NCBI GenBank assembly: GCA_964639795.1
Contig: CAZXFE010000001.1
Coordinates: 1-61,477, forward strand
Direction of reading: 5' to 3'
DNA: 61,477 nucleotides
Origin: an uncultured Enterobacteriaceae bacterium
Lineage (GTDB): Bacteria; Desulfobacterota; Binatia; Bin18
Below, one piece after another: positions 15,000 through 46,178 of the stretch. Position numbers and translations under genes: made by a program. The first letter of the stretch is position 1; each line of letters opens with the position of its first letter. The notes below the pieces were generated by a model. That model was given only the letters and a program-made list of their open reading frames with translations, was not told where the DNA came from and made no database searches.

Positions 15000-15617
15000 A
15001 TGGCTCAAACCACCGCTACCTCCTCTCTTATCCCGTTTCGGCCTGCGTCTTCTGTTCCAAGACACGACTGGGGCCTTGAGGCTCTCCATGGCCGTCTTGT
15101 CGAGTTATCAGGGGTCGGAAACACCGCAGCCTTAACCATTACGGCCGGCCTGATTTATGAAGCCCAGGAGAACGACGAACCTGTTGCCTGGGTTACACAC
15201 AGAGACAGCTTATTTTTCCCCCCCGATTTTGACGCGAGGGGGATAGATCTTGCTGCCCTTCCGATCATCCGTGTACCGGCAGTATTTCATAGTCTAAAAG
15301 CCACAGACATCTTACTGCGATCTGGTGCGTTCGGACTTATTGTTGTCGATATAGGCGCAAATATAGACATCCGCTTGGCTATACAGACACGGCTTGCTGG
15401 ACTAGCGCGCCATCATCATTCCGCTGTGGTCCTTATTACCGAAAAGAAGAAAGCCGCAGCTACAGCTGGATCCCTGGTTTCAGTGCGAGTTGAGTCACAT
15501 TCTCACCGTATAGAGTTCGACCGCTATACGTGCACTATAGAGGCGATCAAAGACAAACAAGTAGGACCTGGGTGGTCACATAGCGAGGAACACTGTGGAC
15601 CGCTGGGCCTGTCTTAA
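15000..15617 (+). CDS. imuA: ImuA-like (RecA/SulA-fold) translesion synthesis accessory protein
   Basis: 205 aa located between lexA and imuB. RecA-like core without an obvious Walker A motif. Overlaps imuB by 23 nt. Confidence 0.75.
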   Translation: MAQTTATSSLIPFRPASSVPRHDWGLEALHGRLVELSGVGNTAALTITAGLIYEAQENDEPVAWVTHRDSLFFPPDFDARGIDLAALPIIRVPAVFHSLKATDILLRSGAFGLIVVDIGANIDIRLAIQTRLAGLARHHHSAVVLITEKKKAAATAGSLVSVRVESHSHRIEFDRYTCTIEAIKDKQVGPGWSHSEEHCGPLGLS

Positions 15618-17079
15618 CCTTCGGGAGTTCCCACTCCAACTACTTTTGCAACGCTATCCCAAGTGGACTTCCTCCCCCGTTGCCGTAGTGGAGAACGATA
15701 GTCCCAACGGTAAAGTCACTTACGCTAATGAAATTGCTCGAAAACAAGGGGTCATACCGGGTCTTCGCTATGCATCGGCACTAGCCCTTGAGCCACAATT
15801 GCGGGCTGCCCCGATGCCGAGAGAGGTCATAGAGGCCACGATTCGCCATATCATTACAGCGCTGCAAGAGTTTACCCCTGATGTTGAACCCCATTCCCAA
15901 GAATCAGGGATCTTGTGGCTCAATGCGAGCGGACTGCAAAAGCTTTTTCGGTCAATAGAGGAGTGGGCCCGCCGGATCGGGCGGAGATTAACACGAGCGG
16001 GGTATAAGTCAGTTGTCGTCGCCGGCTATACGCGGTTTGGAACTTACGCGCTTGCCAAGAGCGTTCCGGCTGGAGTGCACGTTCTCTCTGACCCCGTTCA
16101 AGAGGGATCAGCAGCGCAAAAAGTTCTTCTTCGCGATCTCGGTCTTTCGCCACGGCTTCTTGGTAATTTAGAGAAACTTGGACTGGAAAGCTTAAAGGAT
16201 TTTCTAAAAATACCCTCAGCCGGGTTTTTGGAGAGATTCGGTCCGGAGGCACACCATCTTCATCAATTGGCCTCTCGCGCAAAGTGGAATCCCATACGGC
16301 CACAAATGCATATGGAGCCCATCCAGAGTAATGTTATTCTCGATTATCCTGAATCAGACACCAATCGGTTAATATTCATAGTCAAAAACGAACTGGCGCC
16401 TATGCTCTTCTCACTGGCAGCGAGGTGTAGATCCCTTGCGGCGATCACCCTGACATTGAAACTTGATTCGAAAGAAACCAAACAAGAAACCCTTAGACCC
16501 GCCAGCCCTACCCTCAACGAACGCCAGATTGTGGACCTTATACGTCTACGTTTTGAGGCTATGACGCTAGCCAGCGGAGTTATCGAAGTTGGCCTTGTAG
16601 CTGATGACGTAGAGGCCACCAGCGAACAACTGCGACTATTTGACCAGATCGCAACACGCAATCTAATAGACGCGAACGACGCGCTGGCTCGCATCCGTGC
16701 GGCCTATAATGAGAAAACTGTTGTCTCCACCGCCCTTCATGAAGGACACCTACCGGAGGCTCAATTTAAGGTCACCTCTCTTCCTTACCTCAGGCACGCG
16801 CACTGCAGGTATGTCAAAATGACGCCTTTGGTTCGCCGATTCAACGTTCGCCCTGAGCCGTTCATAGACCCACAACGGCTGGGAGACCGTGACACGTTTA
16901 TTCGGGGGATGGAGTTGGGAACTCTGCAACGCATGGTCGGGCCTGACACCATATCCGGTAGCTGGTGGAACCGCGAAGTGCAGCGAGACTACTTCTATAC
17001 CGAAACGAGTCTAGGAACTTTTTGGTTATATTATGATCGCATCCGACGTCGGTGGCGACTACACGGCAAGGTCGAATAA
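15595..17079 (+). CDS. imuB: ImuB, Y-family polymerase-like protein
   Basis: 494 aa, GTG start. Y-family palm/fingers-like N-terminal half. Canonical position upstream of dnaE2. Confidence 0.85.
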   Translation: MDRWACLNLREFPLQLLLQRYPKWTSSPVAVVENDSPNGKVTYANEIARKQGVIPGLRYASALALEPQLRAAPMPREVIEATIRHIITALQEFTPDVEPHSQESGILWLNASGLQKLFRSIEEWARRIGRRLTRAGYKSVVVAGYTRFGTYALAKSVPAGVHVLSDPVQEGSAAQKVLLRDLGLSPRLLGNLEKLGLESLKDFLKIPSAGFLERFGPEAHHLHQLASRAKWNPIRPQMHMEPIQSNVILDYPESDTNRLIFIVKNELAPMLFSLAARCRSLAAITLTLKLDSKETKQETLRPASPTLNERQIVDLIRLRFEAMTLASGVIEVGLVADDVEATSEQLRLFDQIATRNLIDANDALARIRAAYNEKTVVSTALHEGHLPEAQFKVTSLPYLRHAHCRYVKMTPLVRRFNVRPEPFIDPQRLGDRDTFIRGMELGTLQRMVGPDTISGSWWNREVQRDYFYTETSLGTFWLYYDRIRRRWRLHGKVE

Positions 17080-17082
17080 TCA

Positions 17083-20000
17083 ATGTATGTCCCGTTATGG
17101 TGCAAAAGCCATTTCTCGTTCCTGGAGGGAGCCAGCCACCCGGAAGAGCTTGTTGAACAAGCAAAACGCTTGGGTCTCGATACACTAGCCATTACTGATC
17201 GTGATGGACTGTATGGTATCGTACGGGCACACGTAGCAGCGCGCGAACACGGGATGCGTATCATTTGTGGAGCGCAGGTCACCTTGATGGACGAATCCCA
17301 TATCCTTCTTCTCGCCCAAAATCGGGGTGGCTATGGGAACCTCTGTCGCCTATTAACTGCCGGGCGAAGACGTTCACCCAAAGGCGAAAGTCGGGTTTCA
17401 TGGACTGAAGTGTGTAAGCATGCGGAAGGTATGATCGCGCTCTGGGGAGGAAATCAGAGTCTTTTAGCCGCCCGGGCAGAACCAGTATCGGTCTCTCGCA
17501 TGCTTCAAAATGCCTTCGGAGATCGGTTGTATGGAATGATAGCGAGGCATAGATGCGCGTCTGAGCAGCAAAGTGAAAACCGAACTGATAAGCGCATAAA
17601 GCGCTACGGCCTTCCTGCTATTGCTGCCCCAGAAGTTCTGTATCACTCACGCTCTCGAAGACCCCTCCAAGATGTCTTGACCTGTATCAAAGAGAAAGCA
17701 ACCCTTATGACCGCGGGACGCCGCATCAATCAGAACGCTGAATATGAAATGCTTTCGCCAGATGCTTTCTCTAGTCTCTACTCGGACTGTCCTCAACTAA
17801 TTGCCCGTACAGTCGAAATTGCCAACCGCTGCACTTTCACGCTTGATGAGCTGCGGTACCGATACCCCACAGAATCTCTTCCCGACGGAACTTCTGAGGC
17901 TGAATGGTTGCGTCATCTCGTCATGATCGGAGCCTCCAGACGGTATCATAGTATGATTCCTCCAGACGTATCTAAGCAAATTGAGACTGAGTTAGTTCTC
18001 ATCGAAGAACTCGATTACGGCGGATATTTTCTCACGATGTGGGAAATTGTGGAGTATTGTCGGGCTCATGAAATACTTTGTCAGGGCCGTGGGTCCGCTG
18101 CAAATTCAATGGTCTGTTACTGTCTGGGGATTACAGCGATCGACCCTGTACGAATGGGACTCCTCTTCGAACGGTTCATTTCACGAGAACGGGCGGAACC
18201 TCCAGACATTGATCTCGATATCGCTCACGAGCGCCGTGAAGAAGTGATTCAGCACGTCTATCAAAAATACGGAAGAGACCGCGCTGCTATGGTGGCAAAC
18301 TTCGTCCGTTATAGACCTCGATCTGCCGTGCGCGATGTCGGAAAAGTGCTTGGATTGCCGCTGACCACATTGGATCGATTAGCAAAACACCTACCCCATC
18401 ATGGAGAAGTGACCGCCAAATCTTTGGCTGATGCAGGACTCGACCCAGGTCAGCACGTATACACTCTCCTGCTCACGCTTACCAATGAGATTTTGAACTT
18501 TCCAAGACACCTCTCGATCCATCCCGGAGGGTTTCTTTTAGGCCATGATCCCGTATGTGAGCTCGTTCCAATAGAAAACGCCACGATGGAGAATCGGACT
18601 GTTATTCAATGGGACAAGGAAGACATTGAAGCGCTCAATCTCTTTAAGGTCGATCTGCTTGGCCTTGGAGCCCTTACCCAGCTCGACCTGTGTTTTAACC
18701 TCCTTCAAGAACGCTATGGTGTAGAGCTATCACTTGGAACCGTCCCGCCAAACGATTCAGAAACCTATGACATGCTTTGTCGTGGAGATACCGTTGGGGT
18801 GTTTCAAGTCGAAAGTCGCGCCCAAATGGCGATGCTGCCTCGTCTCAAGCCGCGCAGTTTTTATGACATCGTTGTAGAAATCAGCTTGGTGCGGCCTGGC
18901 CCCATAAGCGGGGGCATGGTTCACCCTTACCTGCGACGTCGACGGGGTGAGGAACCAATCGACTATCCGCATCCATGTCTCGTTCCTGTTCTGGAGAAAA
19001 CCCTTGGGGTCCCTTTATTTCAAGAGCAAGTAATGAAGTTAGCAATAGTCGCTGCAGATTACACACCTGGCGAAGCGGATCAGTTGCGACGCGACATGGC
19101 GGCGTGGAGACGAAGAGGTAGAATAGAGCGTCACCGTGACCTCCTAACATCGCGTATGGTTGCTAAAGGGATCGCGCCCGTCTTTGCCGAAAGAGTGTTT
19201 GATCAGATTCGCGGTTTTGGCGAGTACGGGTTTCCGGAAAGCCATGCGGCAAGCTTTGCTTTAATTTGCTATGCGACTTCGTATCTGAAGTGTCATTATC
19301 CTGCAGAATTTGCCTGCACGTTACTCAACGCACAGCCCATGGGATTTTATCTCCCTTCAACGATTGTCCATGACGCGATACGACATAGTGTCACCGTGCT
19401 GCCGATTGACGTAAGCAGAAGTACTTGGCAGTGCCGGATAGAGCTACATAAAGGCAACCCTGCTGTACGTATGGGCTTTCGATATGTAAAAGGCCTCGGA
19501 AAAGCAGAGCGGACTCGAATGGCAAGTTTGGAAGTAACGGGTCTGTCACTTTTCCCCGAAACGCTGCGGGACTTTGTTACTCAAAGCCAACTCCAGGAAG
19601 ATAAGCTCCTTTCCTTGGCCGAATCCGGGGCCTTTGATTGTTTCGGTGTTAACAGACGTCAGGCATTATGGATTGTGCGTGAGGCTGCTAAGGGAGACTC
19701 CCTCCCTATGAAGAGCGTGGAGGAAAATCCGGATTTTCCTGTGCCCAATAGTTCCGAACACATAGCATGGGACTATAGGCGATCTTCTCACAGTACGCGT
19801 GGTCACCCCGTCGAAATAGTGAGAACCCTTCTGAATAAGCGCGGACTGCCAGACGCCAGAACGATACGTACCTATCCAGATAAAACCCCGGTTAAATATG
19901 CAGGACTCGTCATTTGTCGGCAAAGACCAGCTACCGCAAAAGGGGTGGTGTTTATGACTCTCGAGGACGAGACGGGATTTGTGAATATCGTGATATGGGC

Positions 20001-20166
20001 GACGCGTTTCGAACAACAAGCTATAATCGCGAAAACTAGCCCGTTTCTTGGGATAACAGGCTCGATCCAATCACACGAGGGAGTTGTGCATATCGTCGCA
20101 GACCAACTATGGAAGCCTGATTTTCGCCTTTTCAGGGAAACGCCCAGAAGCCACGATTTTCATTGA
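17083..20166 (+). CDS. dnaE2: error-prone DNA polymerase DnaE2 (ImuC)
   Basis: 1027 aa. N-terminal PHP domain (LWCKSHFSFLEGASHPEELV), a pol III alpha core and an OB fold. Lies 3 nt after imuB. Confidence 0.95.
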   Translation: MYVPLWCKSHFSFLEGASHPEELVEQAKRLGLDTLAITDRDGLYGIVRAHVAAREHGMRIICGAQVTLMDESHILLLAQNRGGYGNLCRLLTAGRRRSPKGESRVSWTEVCKHAEGMIALWGGNQSLLAARAEPVSVSRMLQNAFGDRLYGMIARHRCASEQQSENRTDKRIKRYGLPAIAAPEVLYHSRSRRPLQDVLTCIKEKATLMTAGRRINQNAEYEMLSPDAFSSLYSDCPQLIARTVEIANRCTFTLDELRYRYPTESLPDGTSEAEWLRHLVMIGASRRYHSMIPPDVSKQIETELVLIEELDYGGYFLTMWEIVEYCRAHEILCQGRGSAANSMVCYCLGITAIDPVRMGLLFERFISRERAEPPDIDLDIAHERREEVIQHVYQKYGRDRAAMVANFVRYRPRSAVRDVGKVLGLPLTTLDRLAKHLPHHGEVTAKSLADAGLDPGQHVYTLLLTLTNEILNFPRHLSIHPGGFLLGHDPVCELVPIENATMENRTVIQWDKEDIEALNLFKVDLLGLGALTQLDLCFNLLQERYGVELSLGTVPPNDSETYDMLCRGDTVGVFQVESRAQMAMLPRLKPRSFYDIVVEISLVRPGPISGGMVHPYLRRRRGEEPIDYPHPCLVPVLEKTLGVPLFQEQVMKLAIVAADYTPGEADQLRRDMAAWRRRGRIERHRDLLTSRMVAKGIAPVFAERVFDQIRGFGEYGFPESHAASFALICYATSYLKCHYPAEFACTLLNAQPMGFYLPSTIVHDAIRHSVTVLPIDVSRSTWQCRIELHKGNPAVRMGFRYVKGLGKAERTRMASLEVTGLSLFPETLRDFVTQSQLQEDKLLSLAESGAFDCFGVNRRQALWIVREAAKGDSLPMKSVEENPDFPVPNSSEHIAWDYRRSSHSTRGHPVEIVRTLLNKRGLPDARTIRTYPDKTPVKYAGLVICRQRPATAKGVVFMTLEDETGFVNIVIWATRFEQQAIIAKTSPFLGITGSIQSHEGVVHIVADQLWKPDFRLFRETPRSHDFH

Positions 20167-39482: not shown

Positions 39483-40028
39483 CTACGCAGCCTGCTGCGC
39501 TTTTTGGGTGAGCAGCATGCCAATGATCTGATCAATAACCTGATCAGCTAATGCCCGAACTTCGTCTTTGGTCTTGGGCTGAATAGGATGCTCGACCAAT
39601 ATGGGTTGGTATTGCGCCATTCCCAGGGCGGCACACTGCGCATTGGCCGCACCGATGAATTCCGTGGTCGTTACGTTTGCCGTAGGGATACCGTTTTCTT
39701 CAAAATAAATGACATCGTGCGAACTGCACGAGATGCAGGCCCCTCAATCGCTGAGGGCTTCGATCACCGCATCGCACTGCTCACGTAGTTCCACCCGGAT
39801 CGGCTCCGGTGCAGGTCGTGTAACCGTAGGTTTCATGCGCCGGAGCACCATCTTGACTCCGTACTGCTCGCGCAGGACTTCCTCTACACGGTCAAGAAAG
39901 AAAGAGCCCTTGGCTTTACTGATGTCAAGCAAGCCAATAGTAGTCCCAGCTAGACTATCCAGCCGGGGTGCAAAATATTTCTGGGAACGTTCGACCTTAT
40001 CGGTAGGATCGAGTAAGAACTCACCCAT
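39483..40028 (-). CDS. UGSC-like selenoprotein (181 codons, TGA at codon 95)
   Basis: Track ORF 39744..40028 ends ..CDAVIEALSD at TGA (39744-39746). The same frame continues GACISCSSHDVIYFEENGIPTANVTTTEF..EHPIQPKTKDEVRALADQVIDQIIGML to TAG at 39483. The motif is U-G-A-C. Confidence 0.75.
39715..39731 (-). other. SECIS-like hairpin downstream of the UGA
   Basis: U16-C-G-U-G-C / AGUUC loop / G-C-A-C-G-A32, counted from the U of UGA. The 6-bp stem places G23-U24 in the apical loop, as in the E. coli fdhF SECIS. Confidence 0.55.
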
Positions 40029-40042
40029 AGTATACCTCCTCT

Positions 40043-41149
40043 TTAAGTCTGAATCTCCTTGGTTGTAATACGGCTACCGGCATCAAAGCCGGCCCAGCCT
40101 TGCACCGCAGCGGAAAATCGACCTGCCGTGCCGCCGGCTACGATAATAACAATGTTTTCTGCTTTAGGAAACTTAGGAAATAAGGTGTCATCGGTTGGGG
40201 GTTCGCGGTCTTTCTTGGGCGTGCGTAGCATGCTTACCCCAACCCCTTCACCGCCGTTCACACCAGGACGCAGTTCCCGCAAGGGGCGGCGAATATTCTC
40301 ATACAGGAATTGTCGTAGGTCGTTCTTGGACCATCTGTCTTGAGCAAACGTTTTGGCATGTTCGGGACAGACCACGAGAACGGTATCGGAAAATAAAGGA
40401 TAATTTTTATGGTTCCACAGTGATCCCATGGACCAGCCCAGCGACAAAGCTAGCTGTTCCGCCGTGCGACTGGCGTGATCGTTAATTTGCATGGGAGAGT
40501 GGCCGCCGAACAGCGTAATCGTACTTTGATCAGGTTGATAGCCATTCTCGACATGGAGCGGCTCCCATGGACTGTCTTCTTCATTTTCACCCACGCAGAA
40601 CGTGTACTGGGCGGGGTGGCCCAGGGTGGCTTTGGTAATCTCGTTCGGCTTGGCCCCCCCAATATTAATAATAATGAGCCGGAGCGCACGACCAATCGTC
40701 GCATTAGCACGAAAACCGTGACCCAAGGCGTTATGGCCACCATTCACGCCAATGGCATTCCGAATCGGCCCATTGATAATGGCCATGGGCGTGGCAGAGA
40801 AGGTAGTTACGTTGATCCCATGAATGCAGAACTGCTCTTCACACATGGCTTCCACACCGGCCAACACGACTGGGAGGTAAGACGGGTGGCAACCGGCCAT
40901 GACCGCGTTAATGGCAATCTTCTCCACTGTCGCTCGACCATAGTTTGGCCCGATTTCTCCAACTATCTCTTGCGGATCACGAGGAGTTGCCGCCAACATA
41001 CGCGTAACGCGATCTTCGGTCGGCGGCACAACGGGCAAACCATCAGTGACACCGCGTTCGTACAGGAGCTCAACCGGGTCGTCTTGGGCTTGTATGCGCT
41101 GGGAGTGCAATTCAGCGATTTCTGGCATAAGAATTCTCCATATAGCCAA
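40043..41149 (-). CDS. conserved uncharacterised protein (368 aa)
   Basis: Lies 14 nt upstream of the selenoprotein gene and 3 nt downstream of the cyclase gene. Contains GVTDGLPVVPPTEDRV, INAVMAGC, RANATIGRALRL. No family name recalled. Confidence 0.7.
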   Translation of the reverse strand: MAIWRILMPEIAELHSQRIQAQDDPVELLYERGVTDGLPVVPPTEDRVTRMLAATPRDPQEIVGEIGPNYGRATVEKIAINAVMAGCHPSYLPVVLAGVEAMCEEQFCIHGINVTTFSATPMAIINGPIRNAIGVNGGHNALGHGFRANATIGRALRLIIINIGGAKPNEITKATLGHPAQYTFCVGENEEDSPWEPLHVENGYQPDQSTITLFGGHSPMQINDHASRTAEQLALSLGWSMGSLWNHKNYPLFSDTVLVVCPEHAKTFAQDRWSKNDLRQFLYENIRRPLRELRPGVNGGEGVGVSMLRTPKKDREPPTDDTLFPKFPKAENIVIIVAGGTAGRFSAAVQGWAGFDAGSRITTKEIQT

Positions 41150-41152
41150 GTG

Positions 41153-42106
41153 CTATTTAATCGCCTGTGGATTAATCGGTGAGCCAACGGCACCGGTTAT
41201 GGGCAACGGCGGGGCAACAAACATGAACTCGTATACTCTGTCATTGGCACAGTCATCAGCCAGCCCTTCAAGATCAAATATCTCGCCGACCAGCATGCCA
41301 GCATGCACAATCAAAATCATATGCAGAGGCTGAAAGATGTCCGGCGTTTCGTTGGGAATGACTTCCGTACCCCAGGTGTCGGTGGCATAGCCGGCAATTT
41401 CTTTTTCACAGATCCAGGTTGCGCAGTCGACGCCCAACCCAGGCGCTGAACCGCCACTGTATTCGCCCCAGCTAGCTTCTGCCCGTACTTGGCCGATTTG
41501 ACCAGTCCGAATCATCACGATATCGCCAGTACCAATGCTGACTTTACCCATGTCAGCTGCACCATCAAGGTCGGCAGGATAAATAGCCTCGCCCGGCTCT
41601 AGCCACTGCTTGCCTTTAAAACGCGGGATATCCAGTAGTACACCCCGTGAGACGATCTTGTCTGTCGCGTTCTCCATGCCGTTTTTCTTCGCGCCCGTAC
41701 TATTCACCTCACTAGCCGGATAGCCGTTGTACATTTGGCCTTGGTACATGATGTGAGCCAGAGCGTCCCACTGGGTTGCACACTGGAGCGGCATGGTCAC
41801 AGCGTCATCGGTATACTGAATAGTTGGCAAATGATCCTGCGCACCGATACTGATGTCGCCTCCGTCTTGGAGCATGAAGTGGATGGGGTTAAAGCGTCCA
41901 AAAGACCCCGTCTGGGGGCCTTTATCGTCAAATGGGATTGCCAGAGAAATCACTTTGCCTTGTTTGACGAGCTTAGAAGCTTCAATAATCTTTTGTGGCG
42001 TAACGTAATTGAGCGTCCCTAGTTGATCGTCGTCGCCCCACCTACCCCAGTTTTTATACTTCTCAGCGAGAGCCTTTACATCATCCATTGAGTAGTGTTT
42101 TGCCAT
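41153..42106 (-). CDS. cyclase-family protein (kynurenine formamidase-like fold)
   Basis: 317 aa. WGRWGDDDQLGTLN, QWDALAHI, GGSAPGLG, as in the putative cyclase family (PF04199-like). Confidence 0.75.
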   Translation of the reverse strand: MAKHYSMDDVKALAEKYKNWGRWGDDDQLGTLNYVTPQKIIEASKLVKQGKVISLAIPFDDKGPQTGSFGRFNPIHFMLQDGGDISIGAQDHLPTIQYTDDAVTMPLQCATQWDALAHIMYQGQMYNGYPASEVNSTGAKKNGMENATDKIVSRGVLLDIPRFKGKQWLEPGEAIYPADLDGAADMGKVSIGTGDIVMIRTGQIGQVRAEASWGEYSGGSAPGLGVDCATWICEKEIAGYATDTWGTEVIPNETPDIFQPLHMILIVHAGMLVGEIFDLEGLADDCANDRVYEFMFVAPPLPITGAVGSPINPQAIK

Positions 42107-42169: not shown

Positions 42170-43168
42170 TTATGTACCAAGACGAAGACCAAGCACGATA
42201 TTTCGGCCTTTCAGGAACTCTGAAATGGGGAGGGGCTTCTTGCCTTCAAGCTGAACCGTGTGAACATTGAGACAGCCCTTTCCGCTCACACCGGTTGCAA
42301 TAGAGAGGTGGACTGCCGCGATACCGATTACCGAACCAGAGGCGGTTGAGACAGGTGGAACGAAAACATTTTCCTTGTCAACACAAGCACCAAGGATTTT
42401 AAGCCGCTTACCCGCGAGGTAGGTATAAGCAGACGGCCAGGGATGGAACGCCCGGATGCGTTGTTCTATGCTCACCGCATCCTGCGTCCAATCGATCTGC
42501 CCATCTTCCTTTTTGAGCATAGGCGCGTAGGTGGCGGTTTCTTCTTTTTGGGGAGACGCAAAAAGCTTCCCTTGCTTAAAGAGCGCCAATGCCTCTACAA
42601 GCGCCTGCGCCCCAAGAATAGCAAGAGTATCGTGCAGACTCCCTCCAGTTTCATTATCTGCTAACTCAACCTGCGTCTGGAGCAGAATATCACCTGCATC
42701 CATTTGCTCACTAATTTTCATGATTGTGACACCGGAATGTGTTTCTCCTCGGGCGATTGCCCACTGAATAGGAGCAGCGCCCCGATACTTGGGGAGGAGG
42801 GAAGCGTGCACGTTGATGCAACCGTATGACGGCAGATCGAGAATCGGACGCGCGAGGATCCTTCCGTACGCAGCGACAACAATGAGGTCTGGTTGCCAGT
42901 CTCGGAGGTGAGCTAGCGTCTCGGCGGTGTGTATCTTTTGCGGCTGAAAAACGGGCACCGAATGTGCAGACGCAAATTTCTTGACGGGAGGGGCATGGAG
43001 GATCATACGACGGCCAGACGGCTTGTCGGGCTGCGCGACGACGCCAACAACCTCATCCTCACTATCCAGGAGAGCCCGGAGCGAGGGCACCGCAAAATCC
43101 GGCGTACCCATGAAAACGAGCCGGAGTGGTCGGGACAACTCTGGAGGCGAAATAAACATTGTCATCAC
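42170..43168 (-). CDS. fmt: methionyl-tRNA formyltransferase
   Basis: LRLVFMGTPDFAVPSL, VVAQPDKPSGR, INVHASLLPKYRGAAPI. The exact start is uncertain. Confidence 0.9.
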   Translation of the reverse strand: MMTMFISPPELSRPLRLVFMGTPDFAVPSLRALLDSEDEVVGVVAQPDKPSGRRMILHAPPVKKFASAHSVPVFQPQKIHTAETLAHLRDWQPDLIVVAAYGRILARPILDLPSYGCINVHASLLPKYRGAAPIQWAIARGETHSGVTIMKISEQMDAGDILLQTQVELADNETGGSLHDTLAILGAQALVEALALFKQGKLFASPQKEETATYAPMLKKEDGQIDWTQDAVSIEQRIRAFHPWPSAYTYLAGKRLKILGACVDKENVFVPPVSTASGSVIGIAAVHLSIATGVSGKGCLNVHTVQLEGKKPLPISEFLKGRNIVLGLRLGT

Positions 43169-43238
43169 AGGAACACTGCAGACTCTGGCAAGTGTCGAGA
43201 GTCCTGCGTCAAAACAGAACGGAACAAAACACGCGCCC

Positions 43239-43778
43239 TCAGATCCCCGGAGATTCTTTACTGCGTTCGAGTGGCCGGCCTTCTCGAATAAGTTTTTTTA
43301 CCCGGCGCGCGTAGAGTTCACGTTTGAGCCGACTAATCCGGTCAATGAACAACTTTCCGGTAAGGTGATCGAGTTCGTGTTGGAGGCACACGGCAAGTAA
43401 TTTCTCAGCCTGGAACGTAATCTCTTCTTGATCCAGCGTCCAGGCCGTGACCTCAACTTTGGCAGCGCGTTTAACTTCAGCGGTATAATCCACCACACTC
43501 AAACAGCCTTCTTCCCATACAATGGAGCCCTCACTCGTGGTGATTCTCGGGTTGATGAGTTTGAGCAGCTCTTTCCCCTTTTCGTCAGGATGCGCATCAA
43601 TGACAATGATGCGGTCTTGTGAACCGACCTGGGTCGCGGCCAACCCGATACCTGGGGCTGCATACATGGTTTGGACCATATCCTCGACCAACTCAGCCAG
43701 GCTGCCGTCCATATTGGCCACTTCTGTTGCCGGCTTCTTGAGACGTGGGTCCGGATAGGTCAAGATCTCTCGAATCAT
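43239..43778 (-). CDS. def: peptide deformylase
   Basis: 179 aa. GIGLAATQVG, EGCLS, HELDHL. Confidence 0.95.
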   Translation of the reverse strand: MIREILTYPDPRLKKPATEVANMDGSLAELVEDMVQTMYAAPGIGLAATQVGSQDRIIVIDAHPDEKGKELLKLINPRITTSEGSIVWEEGCLSVVDYTAEVKRAAKVEVTAWTLDQEEITFQAEKLLAVCLQHELDHLTGKLFIDRISRLKRELYARRVKKLIREGRPLERSKESPGI

Positions 43779-43787
43779 GTTGCCCTT

Positions 43788-46178
43788 CTATACCACGCTG
43801 TACGGATCCACATCAATGATTGTTCGCACCCCTCGGGGGGGGTTGGCCTGATCAAAGGCGTCACGTGCTTTTTTGACCAGGGAGTGCAACATCGGACGAT
43901 TGGGACCCTTGACCAGCAATTGCCAACGCTCACGTCCCTTGATGCGTTCGATGGGAGCGGGAGCAGGACCCAATATCTCCAAGCTTGATGGATCTGTTGA
44001 GACGAATTCAGCAGACTGCAGTATGTCTTCGAGTTGCTGGGCGAACAGGGTTGCACTCGCCTCGACCTGCTGTCCGTCTCGTCCTTCAAAACGCATATTG
44101 ATCATCCGCGTGAAAGGCGGATAGCCAAGACGTTTGCGATAGCGCAATTCCTGAGCGGCGAATCGAGTGAAGTCATGTTGGGAAGCACACCGAATACTGT
44201 AATGCCTCGGCGCGTACGTCTGGATGATGACTCTCCCGATGTCCTCACCCCGTCCCGCTCTTCCAGCCACTTGGGTGAGCAGTTGAAAGGTGCGTTCTGC
44301 AGCGCGAAAATCCGGTCGATTGAGCGTGACGTCAGCGAGGATCACCCCGACGAGGGTGACTCCGGGAACGTCATGTCCCTTAGCGACCATTTGGGTTCCA
44401 ATCAATACATCGAACTCATGCCCACGCCAGGCGCGTAAAATTCGATCAAGCGTCCCCCGGCGCTTTACGGTGTCCCGATCAAGCCGAGCAATCCGGACTT
44501 CTGGTAGAAAATTCTTGAGTGCATCTTCAACCTGCTCTGTTCCTATCCCACTCCCAGCCAGGCTAGGCTCGTGGCAAGCAGGGCACTCATCCATGCTCCG
44601 TCTGGTAAAACCGCAATAGTGGCAGCACAGCGCTCTCCGCTGCAGGTGAAAGGTCAGGGTCACACTGCAATGCGGACATGAGAGAGCCTCACCGCACAGG
44701 CGGCATTGAAGATAATTCGCATATCCACGCCGATTGAGAAATAGGACGCTTTGCTTTCCAGCCTGATGGTTGGCAATGAGCGCGTTTTTTAAGCGTATTG
44801 AAAAGATAGGAGCCGCGTGCCCGGACCTGGCCTCATTTCGGAGGTCGATGATCTCAACTTTTGGTAAGGGGCGCGATGCAACACGCTCAGGAAGAGTCAA
44901 GGCAGTGTATTGCTGTGTTTGACTGTGTGTATAGCTCTCAAGCGATGGAGTCGCAGAACCCAAAATTACAGGACAAGATGAGATTTTACTGCGTAGAACC
45001 GCAATATCTCTTGCATTATAGCGAACTCCATCTTCCTGCTTATAGGCTGTTTCATGCTCTTCATCCACGACAATCAGTCCAAGATCAGTCAGAGGGGCAA
45101 AAACAGCCGAACGCGCACCAACAACAACCGACACCTCTCCACGGGCAATACGTTTCCACTCGATCCAACGTATTTTATCCGTCATTGCGCTATGAAGCAC
45201 AGCAACCCTACTGCCAAAACATTTTTGGACCTGAGTAACGAGTTGTTGCGTGAGTGCAATCTCTGGGACAAGGATAAGCGCGCTTTTCTTTTGCCTTACT
45301 GCTTGCCTTGTCGCCCTCAGATAAACTTCGGTTTTCCCACTGCCGGTAACTCCATACAGAAGAAAAACTCGAAATTCGCTTTTTTTTAGCGAATTTTCTA
45401 TCTCACGGTACGCATTTCGCTGGGCATCAGTCAAAGCGAGAGCCTCCCATTGAGCCCCTTCTGCCTTCTCTTCTGGAATATCCCCACCCTTTTCAACTAG
45501 TCTGCTCTCCGCTTCCCCAGATCCACTGATAGTCCGAGGTCGGGAGTACGACTCCGTGACCCGTATAAGTTTAAGCATCTCAAGATGCTCGAGCTGCTCT
45601 CTCAAAACACGCTGAGGAAAGCGGCGCCGTAGAGTTTTAACAGCCACCCGCTTCTTCTCTTTTATGTAGGAGAGCAAGTCTCTCTCATCGCCACTGAGGC
45701 CGTCAACCAGAGCGTTTTCTTTCTCCTGATCATCATCAGCGCTTCGTTCTCCTCCAGATACAAGTGTCCTCTTCTTCCTGTTTTTCCTCTTTTTAGCCGG
45801 TGTCACGAATACTGCACTCTCATTACGTGCTGTACGAGGCAGTATCGTCTGGAGAGTAGCTCCCGGCGAAGAAAAATAATATTCTGATATCCATTCCCAA
45901 AGATGTCTCATGTATTGAGTGAAAATAGGAACTTCGTCTATAATATCGAGAATGTCCTTTACTTTTTTTTGATCGACATTTCCTGAGTGAGAACTGAGTC
46001 CAACAATTATTCCCGTTATTTTCCGGCTACTTACAGGAACGACAACGCGAACCCCCTCCTGGGCACGCGAAATCAGGAGCGCTGGAACACGATAAACTAA
46101 TTCACTATTCCTGCCGATAGGAAGTGTGAGGGCGACAGAAGCGAAGCAAGGATTCGTGAAACATTCCGTGTTAAACAT
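43788..46178 (-). CDS. priA: primosomal protein N' (replication restart helicase)
   Basis: 796 aa. [15 protein letters not shown], and a Cys-rich zinc-binding insert (CRLCGEALSCPHCS..CHYCG..CPAC). Confidence 0.95.
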   Translation of the reverse strand: MFNTECFTNPCFASVALTLPIGRNSELVYRVPALLISRAQEGVRVVVPVSSRKITGIIVGLSSHSGNVDQKKVKDILDIIDEVPIFTQYMRHLWEWISEYYFSSPGATLQTILPRTARNESAVFVTPAKKRKNRKKRTLVSGGERSADDDQEKENALVDGLSGDERDLLSYIKEKKRVAVKTLRRRFPQRVLREQLEHLEMLKLIRVTESYSRPRTISGSGEAESRLVEKGGDIPEEKAEGAQWEALALTDAQRNAYREIENSLKKSEFRVFLLYGVTGSGKTEVYLRATRQAVRQKKSALILVPEIALTQQLVTQVQKCFGSRVAVLHSAMTDKIRWIEWKRIARGEVSVVVGARSAVFAPLTDLGLIVVDEEHETAYKQEDGVRYNARDIAVLRSKISSCPVILGSATPSLESYTHSQTQQYTALTLPERVASRPLPKVEIIDLRNEARSGHAAPIFSIRLKNALIANHQAGKQSVLFLNRRGYANYLQCRLCGEALSCPHCSVTLTFHLQRRALCCHYCGFTRRSMDECPACHEPSLAGSGIGTEQVEDALKNFLPEVRIARLDRDTVKRRGTLDRILRAWRGHEFDVLIGTQMVAKGHDVPGVTLVGVILADVTLNRPDFRAAERTFQLLTQVAGRAGRGEDIGRVIIQTYAPRHYSIRCASQHDFTRFAAQELRYRKRLGYPPFTRMINMRFEGRDGQQVEASATLFAQQLEDILQSAEFVSTDPSSLEILGPAPAPIERIKGRERWQLLVKGPNRPMLHSLVKKARDAFDQANPPRGVRTIIDVDPYSVV

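Follow-up and report, generated by a model that had tools for sequence, protein, structure and literature searches.

The locus

The window considered here is a stretch of 61,477 nucleotides (nt) from contig CAZXFE010000001.1 (assembly GCA_964639795.1), and all coordinates below are positions within it. On its minus strand lie three co-directional genes, which encode a cyclase-family protein, a protein of about 360 amino acids (aa) and, furthest downstream, a protein of the UGSC family whose reading frame contains an in-frame TGA. Comparison with homologous loci leads us to regard this TGA as a selenocysteine (Sec) codon, followed by a selenocysteine insertion sequence (SECIS) hairpin, and the last two genes as a near-obligate pair. 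The nearest relatives of the window are metagenome-assembled genomes of Candidatus Binatia, where the middle protein is 93% identical. The features of the locus are as follows.

39483..40028, minus strand: UGSC-family selenoprotein gene, 181 codons including one Sec codon (translation, NF041046, PF24696)
39744..39746, minus strand: in-frame TGA, codon 95, predicted to be read as selenocysteine (comparative codon conservation)
39715..39731, minus strand: predicted SECIS hairpin UCGUGC-AGUUC-GCACGA (sequence, pairing in homologues, frozen synonymous sites)
40043..41128, minus strand: gene of the ~360-aa partner, probably 361 aa from ATG 41128 (starts of homologues, GGAGAA box)
41153..42106, minus strand: cyclase-family (PF04199) gene, 317 aa (Pfam Cyclase)

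The original prediction for this locus had placed gaps of 3 and 14 nt between the genes. The latter is correct: 14 nt separate the ~360-aa gene from the UGSC gene, whose start codon ATG 40028 is preceded by AGGAGG at 40040..40035. The former holds only with an alternative TTG start at 41149, which gives a 368-aa protein and leaves 3 nt to the cyclase gene. Since the homologues begin about seven residues past this TTG, and since a GGAGAA box is located at 41139..41134 upstream of ATG 41128, the gene probably consists of 361 codons from ATG 41128 and is separated from the cyclase gene by 24 nt.

The UGSC gene and its TGA codon

Translation from ATG 40028 yields 94 codons up to the TGA at 39746..39744, followed in the same frame by 86 sense codons and a TAG at 39485..39483, which confirms the frame continuation that had been predicted beyond the 94-aa open reading frame. 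The peptide at the TGA reads AVIEALSD-U-GACISCSSHDV, with a D-U-G-A-C-I-S-C motif of the UxxCxxC type; the region flanking the Sec is ALSD-U-GACISCSSHDVIYFEENGIPTANVTTTEFIGAANAQ. The U-x-x-C motif had been recognized from the sequence as one of the UGSC family, and the profile searches agree. With the TGA translated as Cys, the 181-aa read-through product scores 148.3 bits against NCBIfam NF041046 (cutoff 125) in a match that spans the TGA, and 158.3 bits against Pfam PF24696 (cutoff 25) in a match that covers residues 5-172 of 181, again across the TGA. In the motif itself, U95-G-A-C98, the Ser of UGSC is replaced by Ala. Ala or Gly is also found at this position in the close Binatia relatives L001-L004 and L007-L010, and in the alignment of UGSC homologues the Sec and the Cys at +3 are invariant.

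For comparison, 86 loci (L001-L086) were gathered through relatives of the ~360-aa gene, and the UGSC gene is present in 73 of them. At the Sec position, 72 of these 73 loci have TGA and one (L081) has TGC; the frame 3' of the TGA, 86 codons in the window, is conserved in the homologues at the protein level. Gene callers split the homologous genes at the TGA, yet both pieces match one Pfam model in order, and the UGSC homologues of the Cys form are continuous open reading frames; the homologues thus do not consist of two separate genes, an outcome that would have told against the original prediction. TGA is also the normal stop codon of three other genes of the window (dnaE2, def and one for a methyltransferase), which indicates site-specific recoding and not a variant genetic code. 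The 61-kb window contains none of selA, selB, selD and a gene for tRNA-Sec, and a literature search that combined Binatia with selenocysteine found nothing. Based on the comparative evidence across homologous loci, including that for the hairpin described below, we judge the gene to be a genuine UGSC-family selenoprotein gene with a real SECIS element.

As a selenoprotein it is a further member of an already catalogued family, and the current NCBI models would name such a gene. The "UGSC-containing protein" has been listed since the mid-2000s in selenoproteome surveys of the Sargasso Sea, of data from Global Ocean Sampling (GOS) and of Olavius. In the GOS survey, the family is among the most abundant, with 255 Sec and 21 Cys forms, and is enriched in non-marine samples (PMC2398784); across the surveys it ranks with the most plentiful selenoprotein families of aquatic settings, mostly in the Sec form. 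A paper from 2007 called it "a selenoprotein of unknown function" (PMC1976440), and a review from 2026 still counts it among the uncharacterised families (PMC13188914). The literature searched held no functional account of these genes, in line with the original prediction, which had called their role uncharacterised.

The SECIS hairpin

Counted from the U of the UGA, the stem is formed by nt 16-21 (UCGUGC) and nt 27-32 (GCACGA), which enclose the loop A22 G23 U24 U25 C26. The hairpin thus starts about 12 nt past the UGA, within the coding sequence. This is the 6-bp stem with an AGUUC loop and G23-U24 that the original prediction had described, and the homologues bear it out. The comparison used 65 distinct homologous sequences of 42 nt from the TGA onward, which align without gaps. 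In all 65, the pairs 17-31, 18-30, 19-29, 20-28 and 21-27 are standard, the stem begins at nt 16-17 and has a constant length, and G23 and U24 are invariant. Overall, 92% of the cells are paired, compared with 3-61% when the 3' arm is slid along as a control, and none of 500 shuffles reaches the observed covariation score. At 18-30 G-C is changed to G.U 20 times; the other pairing-compatible changes are one G-C to A-U, and U-A to A-U, G.U and U.G at 19-29. G.U variants occur at three pairs (18-30, 19-29 and 20-28), and double changes at two pairs, in three sequences in total. In L079 the 19-29 pair is kept as A-U while the encoded residues change at both sides, Cys to Ser and His to Leu.

The stem overlaps the codons of a conserved Cys and a conserved His, and coding constraint is therefore a confounder in this comparison. 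It is answered by the third-codon positions, at which synonymous sites are frozen inside the hairpin and free in its flanks. Entropies before the hairpin are 1.68, 1.73, 0.94 and 1.75 bits (positions 6, 9, 12 and 15), inside the hairpin 0.11, 0, 0 and 0 bits (positions 18, 21, 24 and 27) and after it 1.7-1.9 bits (positions 36, 39 and 42). The Cys codon ahead of the hairpin is TGC in 42 sequences and TGT in 23; inside it, 63 sequences encode Cys, and every one of them uses TGC. The Ser codon in the loop is always AGT (or TGT), never AGC. In L081, the homologue with a Cys codon in place of the TGA, the corresponding stretch reads TCC-TGC-AGC-ACC-CAC and the hairpin is lost.

On the single sequence of the window, the hairpin is not distinguishable from chance (z-score of the minimum free energy (MFE) +1.05 for a 66-nt stretch), and folding by MFE yields a competitor, the hairpin CUGCAU-CUC-GUGCAG. 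The competitor can be formed in relatives too, and the two hairpins are mutually exclusive. We prefer the conserved hairpin because it alone is supported in 65 of 65 sequences. A longer stem of 9 bp (nt 6-14 with nt 25-33), which is visible in some UGSC genes, was considered and rejected, as the window sequence is unable to form it. An Rfam scan of the SECIS region gave no model match, only snoRNA-like scores at the level of chance. A terminator-pattern scan called the hairpin (39731..39715) together with the following UGUCAUUUAU terminator-like; simple scans of this kind can mis-call SECIS elements within coding regions.

Pairing of the UGSC and ~360-aa genes

In 73 of the 86 loci, the UGSC gene lies immediately downstream of the ~360-aa gene on the same strand. 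These pairs are found in Binatia, Methylomirabilota, Acidobacteriota, Chloroflexota, Actinomycetota and Myxococcota, and also in Alpha-, Beta- and Gammaproteobacteria. A second set of 80 loci (L087-L166) comes from a metagenome scan with the UGSC profile. It comprises Cys forms only, because the Sec column of the profile was back-translated as Cys. A ~360-aa homologue is adjacent in 69 of the 80, mostly in the order UGSC then ~360-aa gene. Eight of the 11 exceptions are uninformative, as their flank on the side where the partner is expected is shorter than 170 nt, so that 69 of 72 informative loci are paired. As judged from gene order in both sets, the UGSC and ~360-aa proteins are a near-obligate pair, often fused.

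The cyclase shares this linkage in very few loci. Its product matches Pfam Cyclase PF04199 at 74.3 bits (cutoff 23.1), and its closest solved structure is PDB 5ibz_A (E = 1.2e-68), deposited as an "uncharacterized protein". A cyclase homologue adjoins the pair only in L001-L004, L007 and L008, that is in 6 of 166 loci, all of them close Binatia relatives, with L001-L003 being near-identical copies of one region; none was found in the remaining 80 loci gathered first, or in any of the 80 Cys-form loci. The original prediction had treated the three genes as one operon whose linkage should be conserved. The linkage of the ~360-aa and UGSC genes stood (73/86 and 69/80), that of the cyclase (6/166) did not, and the three-gene unit had to be given up. 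The pattern of occurrence suggests that the cyclase is probably a lineage-specific metabolic neighbour outside the conserved module.

Fusions and replacement of the UGSC domain

About 40 of the best 150 cluster representatives of the ~360-aa family are fusions in which a UGSC domain precedes or follows the ~360-aa domain. Nine of these have a complete N-terminal UGSC domain, in Cys or cysteine-less forms. About 27 start with the C-terminal half of UGSC. Four fusions of the order ~360-aa then UGSC (Sec) finish on the N-terminal half and break off right at the Sec position. Half domains of both kinds are the expected product of gene calling where a Sec TGA interrupts a fusion.

In other members, the position of UGSC is taken by thioredoxin-fold domains of the AhpC/TSA-Redoxin type, with CPTC, CATC or CETC or with the monothiol motifs CPTS or CPTT, and in one member by the catalytic chain of ferredoxin:thioredoxin reductase (FTR). 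This exchange of UGSC for other redox modules suggests that the ~360-aa protein may be an enzyme that needs a dedicated thiol/selenol module. In four N-terminally extended members (P0161, P0183, P0208 and P0281), the linker that leads into the ~360-aa domain contains a conserved P-G-C-[GA] motif, and three of the four extensions carry a thioredoxin-like CxxC motif; the linker cysteine is absent from stand-alone ~360-aa proteins.

The ~360-aa partner protein

The ~360-aa protein has no match in Pfam or NCBIfam, and a Pfam search with 55 family members at E = 1 gave no recurrent family; no sequence match was found among PDB chains either. The family is nevertheless very large, with at least 8000 homologues in a word-indexed search and at least 5492 clusters among 50%-identity representatives in an exhaustive search (E <= 1e-3). 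In the literature searched, we found no description of a ~360-aa partner of UGSC; a "UGSC/Unknown_1" fusion is mentioned in Fig. S1A of the GOS survey (PMC2398784), in which Unknown_1 may or may not be the ~360-aa domain.

An AlphaFold2 model of the ~360-aa protein has a predicted local distance difference test (pLDDT) score of 91 and a predicted template-modelling score (pTM) of 0.91. Its best Foldseek hit is class-I fumarate hydratase alpha (E = 6e-4, TM 0.29-0.34), followed by Toblerone-fold hydrolases (TM ~0.18); with TM values of 0.18-0.34, homology to either group was considered too weak to accept. Across the 150 representatives, eight polar residues stand out as the best conserved: D29 (97%), C80 (96%), N142 (100%), R147 (99%), C178 (86%), E181 (100%), H192 (81%) and H257 (82%). 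The conserved residues, C80 and C178 included, are retained whichever partner domain is present.

Two variations in the family were observed in passing. On the Binatia-related contig of L004 (6001-8195), two tandem paralogues, one of 359 aa and one of 356 aa, share 70% and 74% identity with the protein in the window and sit between the cyclase and UGSC genes; a gene of the BKACE family follows. In Poribacteria (L051, L056, L062, L068, L076 and L086), a stand-alone version of about 315 aa has all eight conserved residues, but neither a UGSC gene nor a thioredoxin-like one adjoins it.

Fold of the UGSC domain and its relation to PrdB

The fold of UGSC was modelled on P0198, a natural fusion homologue of the Cys form, and not on the protein of the window itself. 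The AlphaFold2 model (pLDDT 92.4, pTM 0.92) is one compact object. Its UGSC part is a parallel beta-alpha-beta sandwich of the flavodoxin-like kind, in which CGSC opens the helix after the strand 90-96. The Foldseek neighbours of this domain are the GH3 C-domain, lumazine synthase, the flavodoxin-like reductases NQO2 and AzoR, and GATase1; the top 50 hits include no thioredoxin fold, and a comparison of UGSC with PDB chains gave no sequence match. The model thus points to a flavodoxin-like domain and not to a thioredoxin fold.

In sequence, the Sec region weakly resembles that of PrdB, the selenoprotein B subunit of D-proline reductase. The PrdB alignment reads VLT-G-G-[U/C]-G-T-C-H-R-S-..-E-x-x-G-I-[PS]-T, with a distance to the G-I-P-[ST] strand equal to that in UGSC. 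The two profiles align in hhalign with E = 1.6-3.2e-4 and a probability of 39-50% over 82-87 columns, with Sec placed on Sec and E-x-x-G-I-P-[ST] in register. Reversed PrdB gave E = 0.039 and ten column-shuffled PrdB profiles 0.15-0.65, and when the motif in UGSC was masked the E-value was 0.0043 with an unchanged register. A HMMER search with PF07355 gave no hit for 27 UGSC sequences even at E = 10. From these alignments, a remote homology between UGSC and PrdB is plausible but not established. A kinship of the ~360-aa protein with PrdA/GrdE (the pyruvoyl proprotein family PF09338) was also considered; it was rejected, as the ~360-aa family compared with three PrdA sequences from prdA-prdB loci gave an hhalign probability of 0.2% and no hmmsearch hit. 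Several database sequences of PrdB (P0296, P0342, P0351 and P0364) have W, R or G where the Sec is expected; these residues may be artefacts of TGA translation in the source pipelines and not real substitutions.

A proposed two-part oxidoreductase and its alternatives

The explanation that we favour, and consider likely, is that the UGSC protein and the ~360-aa protein form a two-part thiol/selenol-dependent oxidoreductase, with the UGA decoded via the SECIS hairpin and with the cyclase as a lineage-specific neighbour. The two proteins would act together; many other organisms make them as one fused chain. The ~360-aa protein, with D29, C80, N142, R147, C178, E181, H192 and H257, would be the catalytic or substrate-binding part, which either binds and activates a substrate or itself gets oxidised. 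The flavodoxin-like UGSC domain would supply the redox chemistry through a Sec-x-x-Cys-x-x-Cys centre at the turn from strand to helix. Its selenolate would attack either a partner cysteine that has been oxidised or a substrate bound to the partner. The neighbouring Cys would then resolve the resulting Se-S or Se-C intermediate, and a cellular reductant would re-reduce the selenenylsulfide. The Sec decoding signals, the membership in the UGSC family, the pairing and the fusions are seen in the sequences; we infer, as parts of this scheme, a physical complex of the two proteins, the direction of electron flow and a role for C80 and C178.

Several observations weigh against this explanation. The fused UGSC domains of P0176, P0214 and P0244 lack both the Sec/Cys and the Cys at +3 (e.g., AGIAEIGGSLFG), and these cysteine-less domains suggest that UGSC may play a structural, non-redox part as well as, or in place of, the redox one. 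No loss of C80 or C178 is correlated with the loss of the redox Cys in the partner, so that no such correlation ties these two residues to the redox centre, and the constellation of two Cys, two His and Glu could equally be a metal site. Clades of the ~360-aa family from Poribacteria and of the Rokubacteria type have no redox partner adjacent. Finally, the similarity to PrdB is weak (hhalign probability 39-50%) and unseen by HMMER.

An alternative explanation is that the pair works like PrdAB or GrdBE. UGSC would then be a mini selenoprotein B whose selenolate attacks a carbon of a small-molecule substrate and reductively cleaves a C-N or other C-X bond, and the ~360-aa subunit would hold and activate the substrate in the role of PrdA/GrdE, albeit with a different fold and without a pyruvoyl group. 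The UxxCxxC motif matches that of GrdB/F/H, the profile alignment with PrdB places Sec on Sec (E = 1.6e-4, with clean controls), a gene for a large subunit precedes that for the Sec subunit as in prdA-prdB, and the neighbours are catabolic: zinc-dependent alcohol dehydrogenase (Zn-ADH), short-chain dehydrogenase/reductase (SDR), aldehyde dehydrogenase (ALDH), CoA-transferase, amidohydrolases and the cyclase. However, the ~360-aa family is unlike PrdA/GrdE (the hhalign probability of 0.2% given above), UGSC has no PF07355 match in HMMER at E = 10, and homologues of PrdC, GrdA and GrdC were not seen nearby. Moreover, UGSC is replaced in other members by thioredoxin-fold CxxC domains and an FTR-like domain, which suits disulfide exchange better than chemistry on carbon. 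Because UGSC is interchangeable with ordinary CxxC domains, a PrdB-like attack on carbon is disfavoured, and we regard this alternative as doubtful.

The cyclase, the ~360-aa protein (368 aa in the original prediction) and UGSC might instead be the three enzymes of one pathway operon, each of them required in the same process. The genes run in one direction at short distances in the window and in its nearest relatives, every one has a ribosome-binding site of its own, and the minus strand shows no promoter-like site between them save a weak one inside the cyclase gene. This arrangement is nevertheless confined to the six close Binatia relatives among the 166 loci; elsewhere a luciferase-like (LLM) oxidoreductase, a Zn-ADH, an SDR, an amidohydrolase-2 or nothing at all is found in the position of the cyclase, which makes a common pathway unlikely.

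It is very improbable that UGSC adopts the thioredoxin-like fold assumed in the selenoproteome literature, acts on its own as a general antioxidant or thiol-disulfide oxidoreductase, and stands beside the ~360-aa gene without significance for its function. The UxxC motif would fit such an enzyme; however, the adjacency is near-obligate in both directions, natural fusions exist in both orders, the AlphaFold2 model is flavodoxin-like, and the top 50 Foldseek hits contain no thioredoxin fold. That the TGA is a true stop, with a 94-aa product or a pseudogene and an accidental downstream frame and hairpin, is effectively refuted: gene callers do annotate pieces of 94 aa and of 53-85 aa, and the hairpin on its single sequence is no better than shuffles, but 72 of 73 loci over many phyla retain the TGA with the downstream 86 codons conserved, one curated profile model spans it, synonymous freezing and compensatory changes fall exactly in the hairpin, and homologues with a Cys codon are continuous.

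The two-part oxidoreductase therefore remains our preferred explanation. The selenoprotein of the window alone adds nothing new; the new part is its near-obligate, often fused partner from a very large unmodelled family, a partner that accepts thioredoxin-like or FTR-like modules in the place of UGSC, together with the resemblance of UGSC to a cut-down Sec domain of PrdB/GrdB. Taken together, the pairing, the exchange of modules and the PrdB-like character suggest that an abundant environmental selenoprotein is part of a defined two-component system that is experimentally approachable. More tentatively, it is possible that the pair is a widespread two-subunit or fused selenoenzyme that reduces a small molecule, its Sec subunit being an ancient miniature relative of GrdB/PrdB and its catalytic subunit having a fold without a solved relative. 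If this were the case, then selenium chemistry of the Stickland type would occur outside amino-acid fermenters, in soil and aquatic bacteria.

Neighbouring genes and other features of the window

Several types of genes recur near the pairs of both sets:

Class-III-like Zn-ADH: 31 of 166 loci
SDR: 17 of 166 loci
Luciferase-like oxidoreductase: 11 of 166 loci
ABC ATPase: 11 of 166 loci
ALDH: 8 of 166 loci
CoA-transferase III: 8 of 166 loci
Amidohydrolase-2: 7 of 166 loci

The Zn-ADH (ADH_N + ADH_zinc_N) recurs near Cys-form pairs from soil metagenomes; of these loci only L113 was inspected, where it (L113:2787-3977) sits directly upstream of the UGSC gene. Its recurrence may hint at the class of substrate.

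In the window, the cyclase gene is directly preceded on its own strand by priA, def and fmt (42170-46178, minus strand), and the gap of 63 nt between fmt and the cyclase gene has no promoter-like match. In the relative L001, a restriction-endonuclease-like gene and others are inserted between the fmt region and the cyclase gene. Farther away, a gene for an ImuB-like Y-family polymerase with an IMS domain (15595-17079, plus strand) is followed by a gene for a DnaE2-type error-prone Pol III alpha subunit (17083-20166), and an open reading frame of 205 aa (15000-15617, plus strand) lies just upstream of the former. This frame could be imuA, and the region 15000-20166 looks like an SOS mutagenesis cassette.

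Comparison with known systems

As in the UGSC family defined by NF041046 and PF24696, the protein of the window is full-length, about 180 aa long, with the Sec at the family position and a SECIS element after the UGA; it differs from the usual U-G-S-C in its motif U-G-A-C. The GOS survey guessed a thioredoxin-like fold for UGSC (PMC2398784), whereas the UGSC domain in the model of P0198 is flavodoxin-like.

The UGSC hairpin is similar to the SECIS element of E. coli fdhF in its location in the coding region about 12 nt past the UGA and in having G23 and U24, both essential in fdhF, in the apical loop. It differs in its stem, which is uninterrupted, 5-6 bp long and without the bulged U (U17 in fdhF), and in its loop of 5 nt, AGUKU/AGUUC instead of GGUC. 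To our knowledge, the bulged U is specific to fdhF and not required by general models of bacterial SECIS elements.

The joining of the ~360-aa domain to AhpC/TSA-Redoxin-like CxxC or CxxS domains or to an FTR catalytic-chain domain is reminiscent of the fusions between methionine sulfoxide reductase and thioredoxin. By this analogy, the ~360-aa fusions would be a classic case of an enzyme that has a disulfide reductant of its own. Unlike the methionine sulfoxide reductases, the ~360-aa domain has no detectable kinship to any characterised thiol-dependent reductase.

The Stickland reductases compared are D-proline reductase, with PrdB, and glycine/sarcosine/betaine reductase, with GrdB/F/H, whose selenoprotein B subunits belong to Pfam PF07355. 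UGSC, with its motif U-G-[SA]-C-x-S-C, shares with GrdB/F/H the Cys at +3 and the second Cys at +6 from the Sec, that is the UxxCxxC spacing (PMC6778437, PMC13188914). With PrdB it shares the succession of a beta-strand, U-G-[ST]-C, a helix and then E-x-x-G-I-P-[ST] at +15 to +21, and the UGSC gene, as in prdA-prdB, comes right after the gene for a larger partner subunit. UGSC is smaller (181 aa) than PrdB (241 aa) and GrdB (~430 aa), and its loci, unlike those of the Stickland reductases, show no homologues of PrdC, GrdA or GrdC nearby. The Stickland reductases are known from amino-acid fermenters of the Clostridia type, whereas the hosts of the UGSC pair are Binatia and other soil and aquatic lineages.

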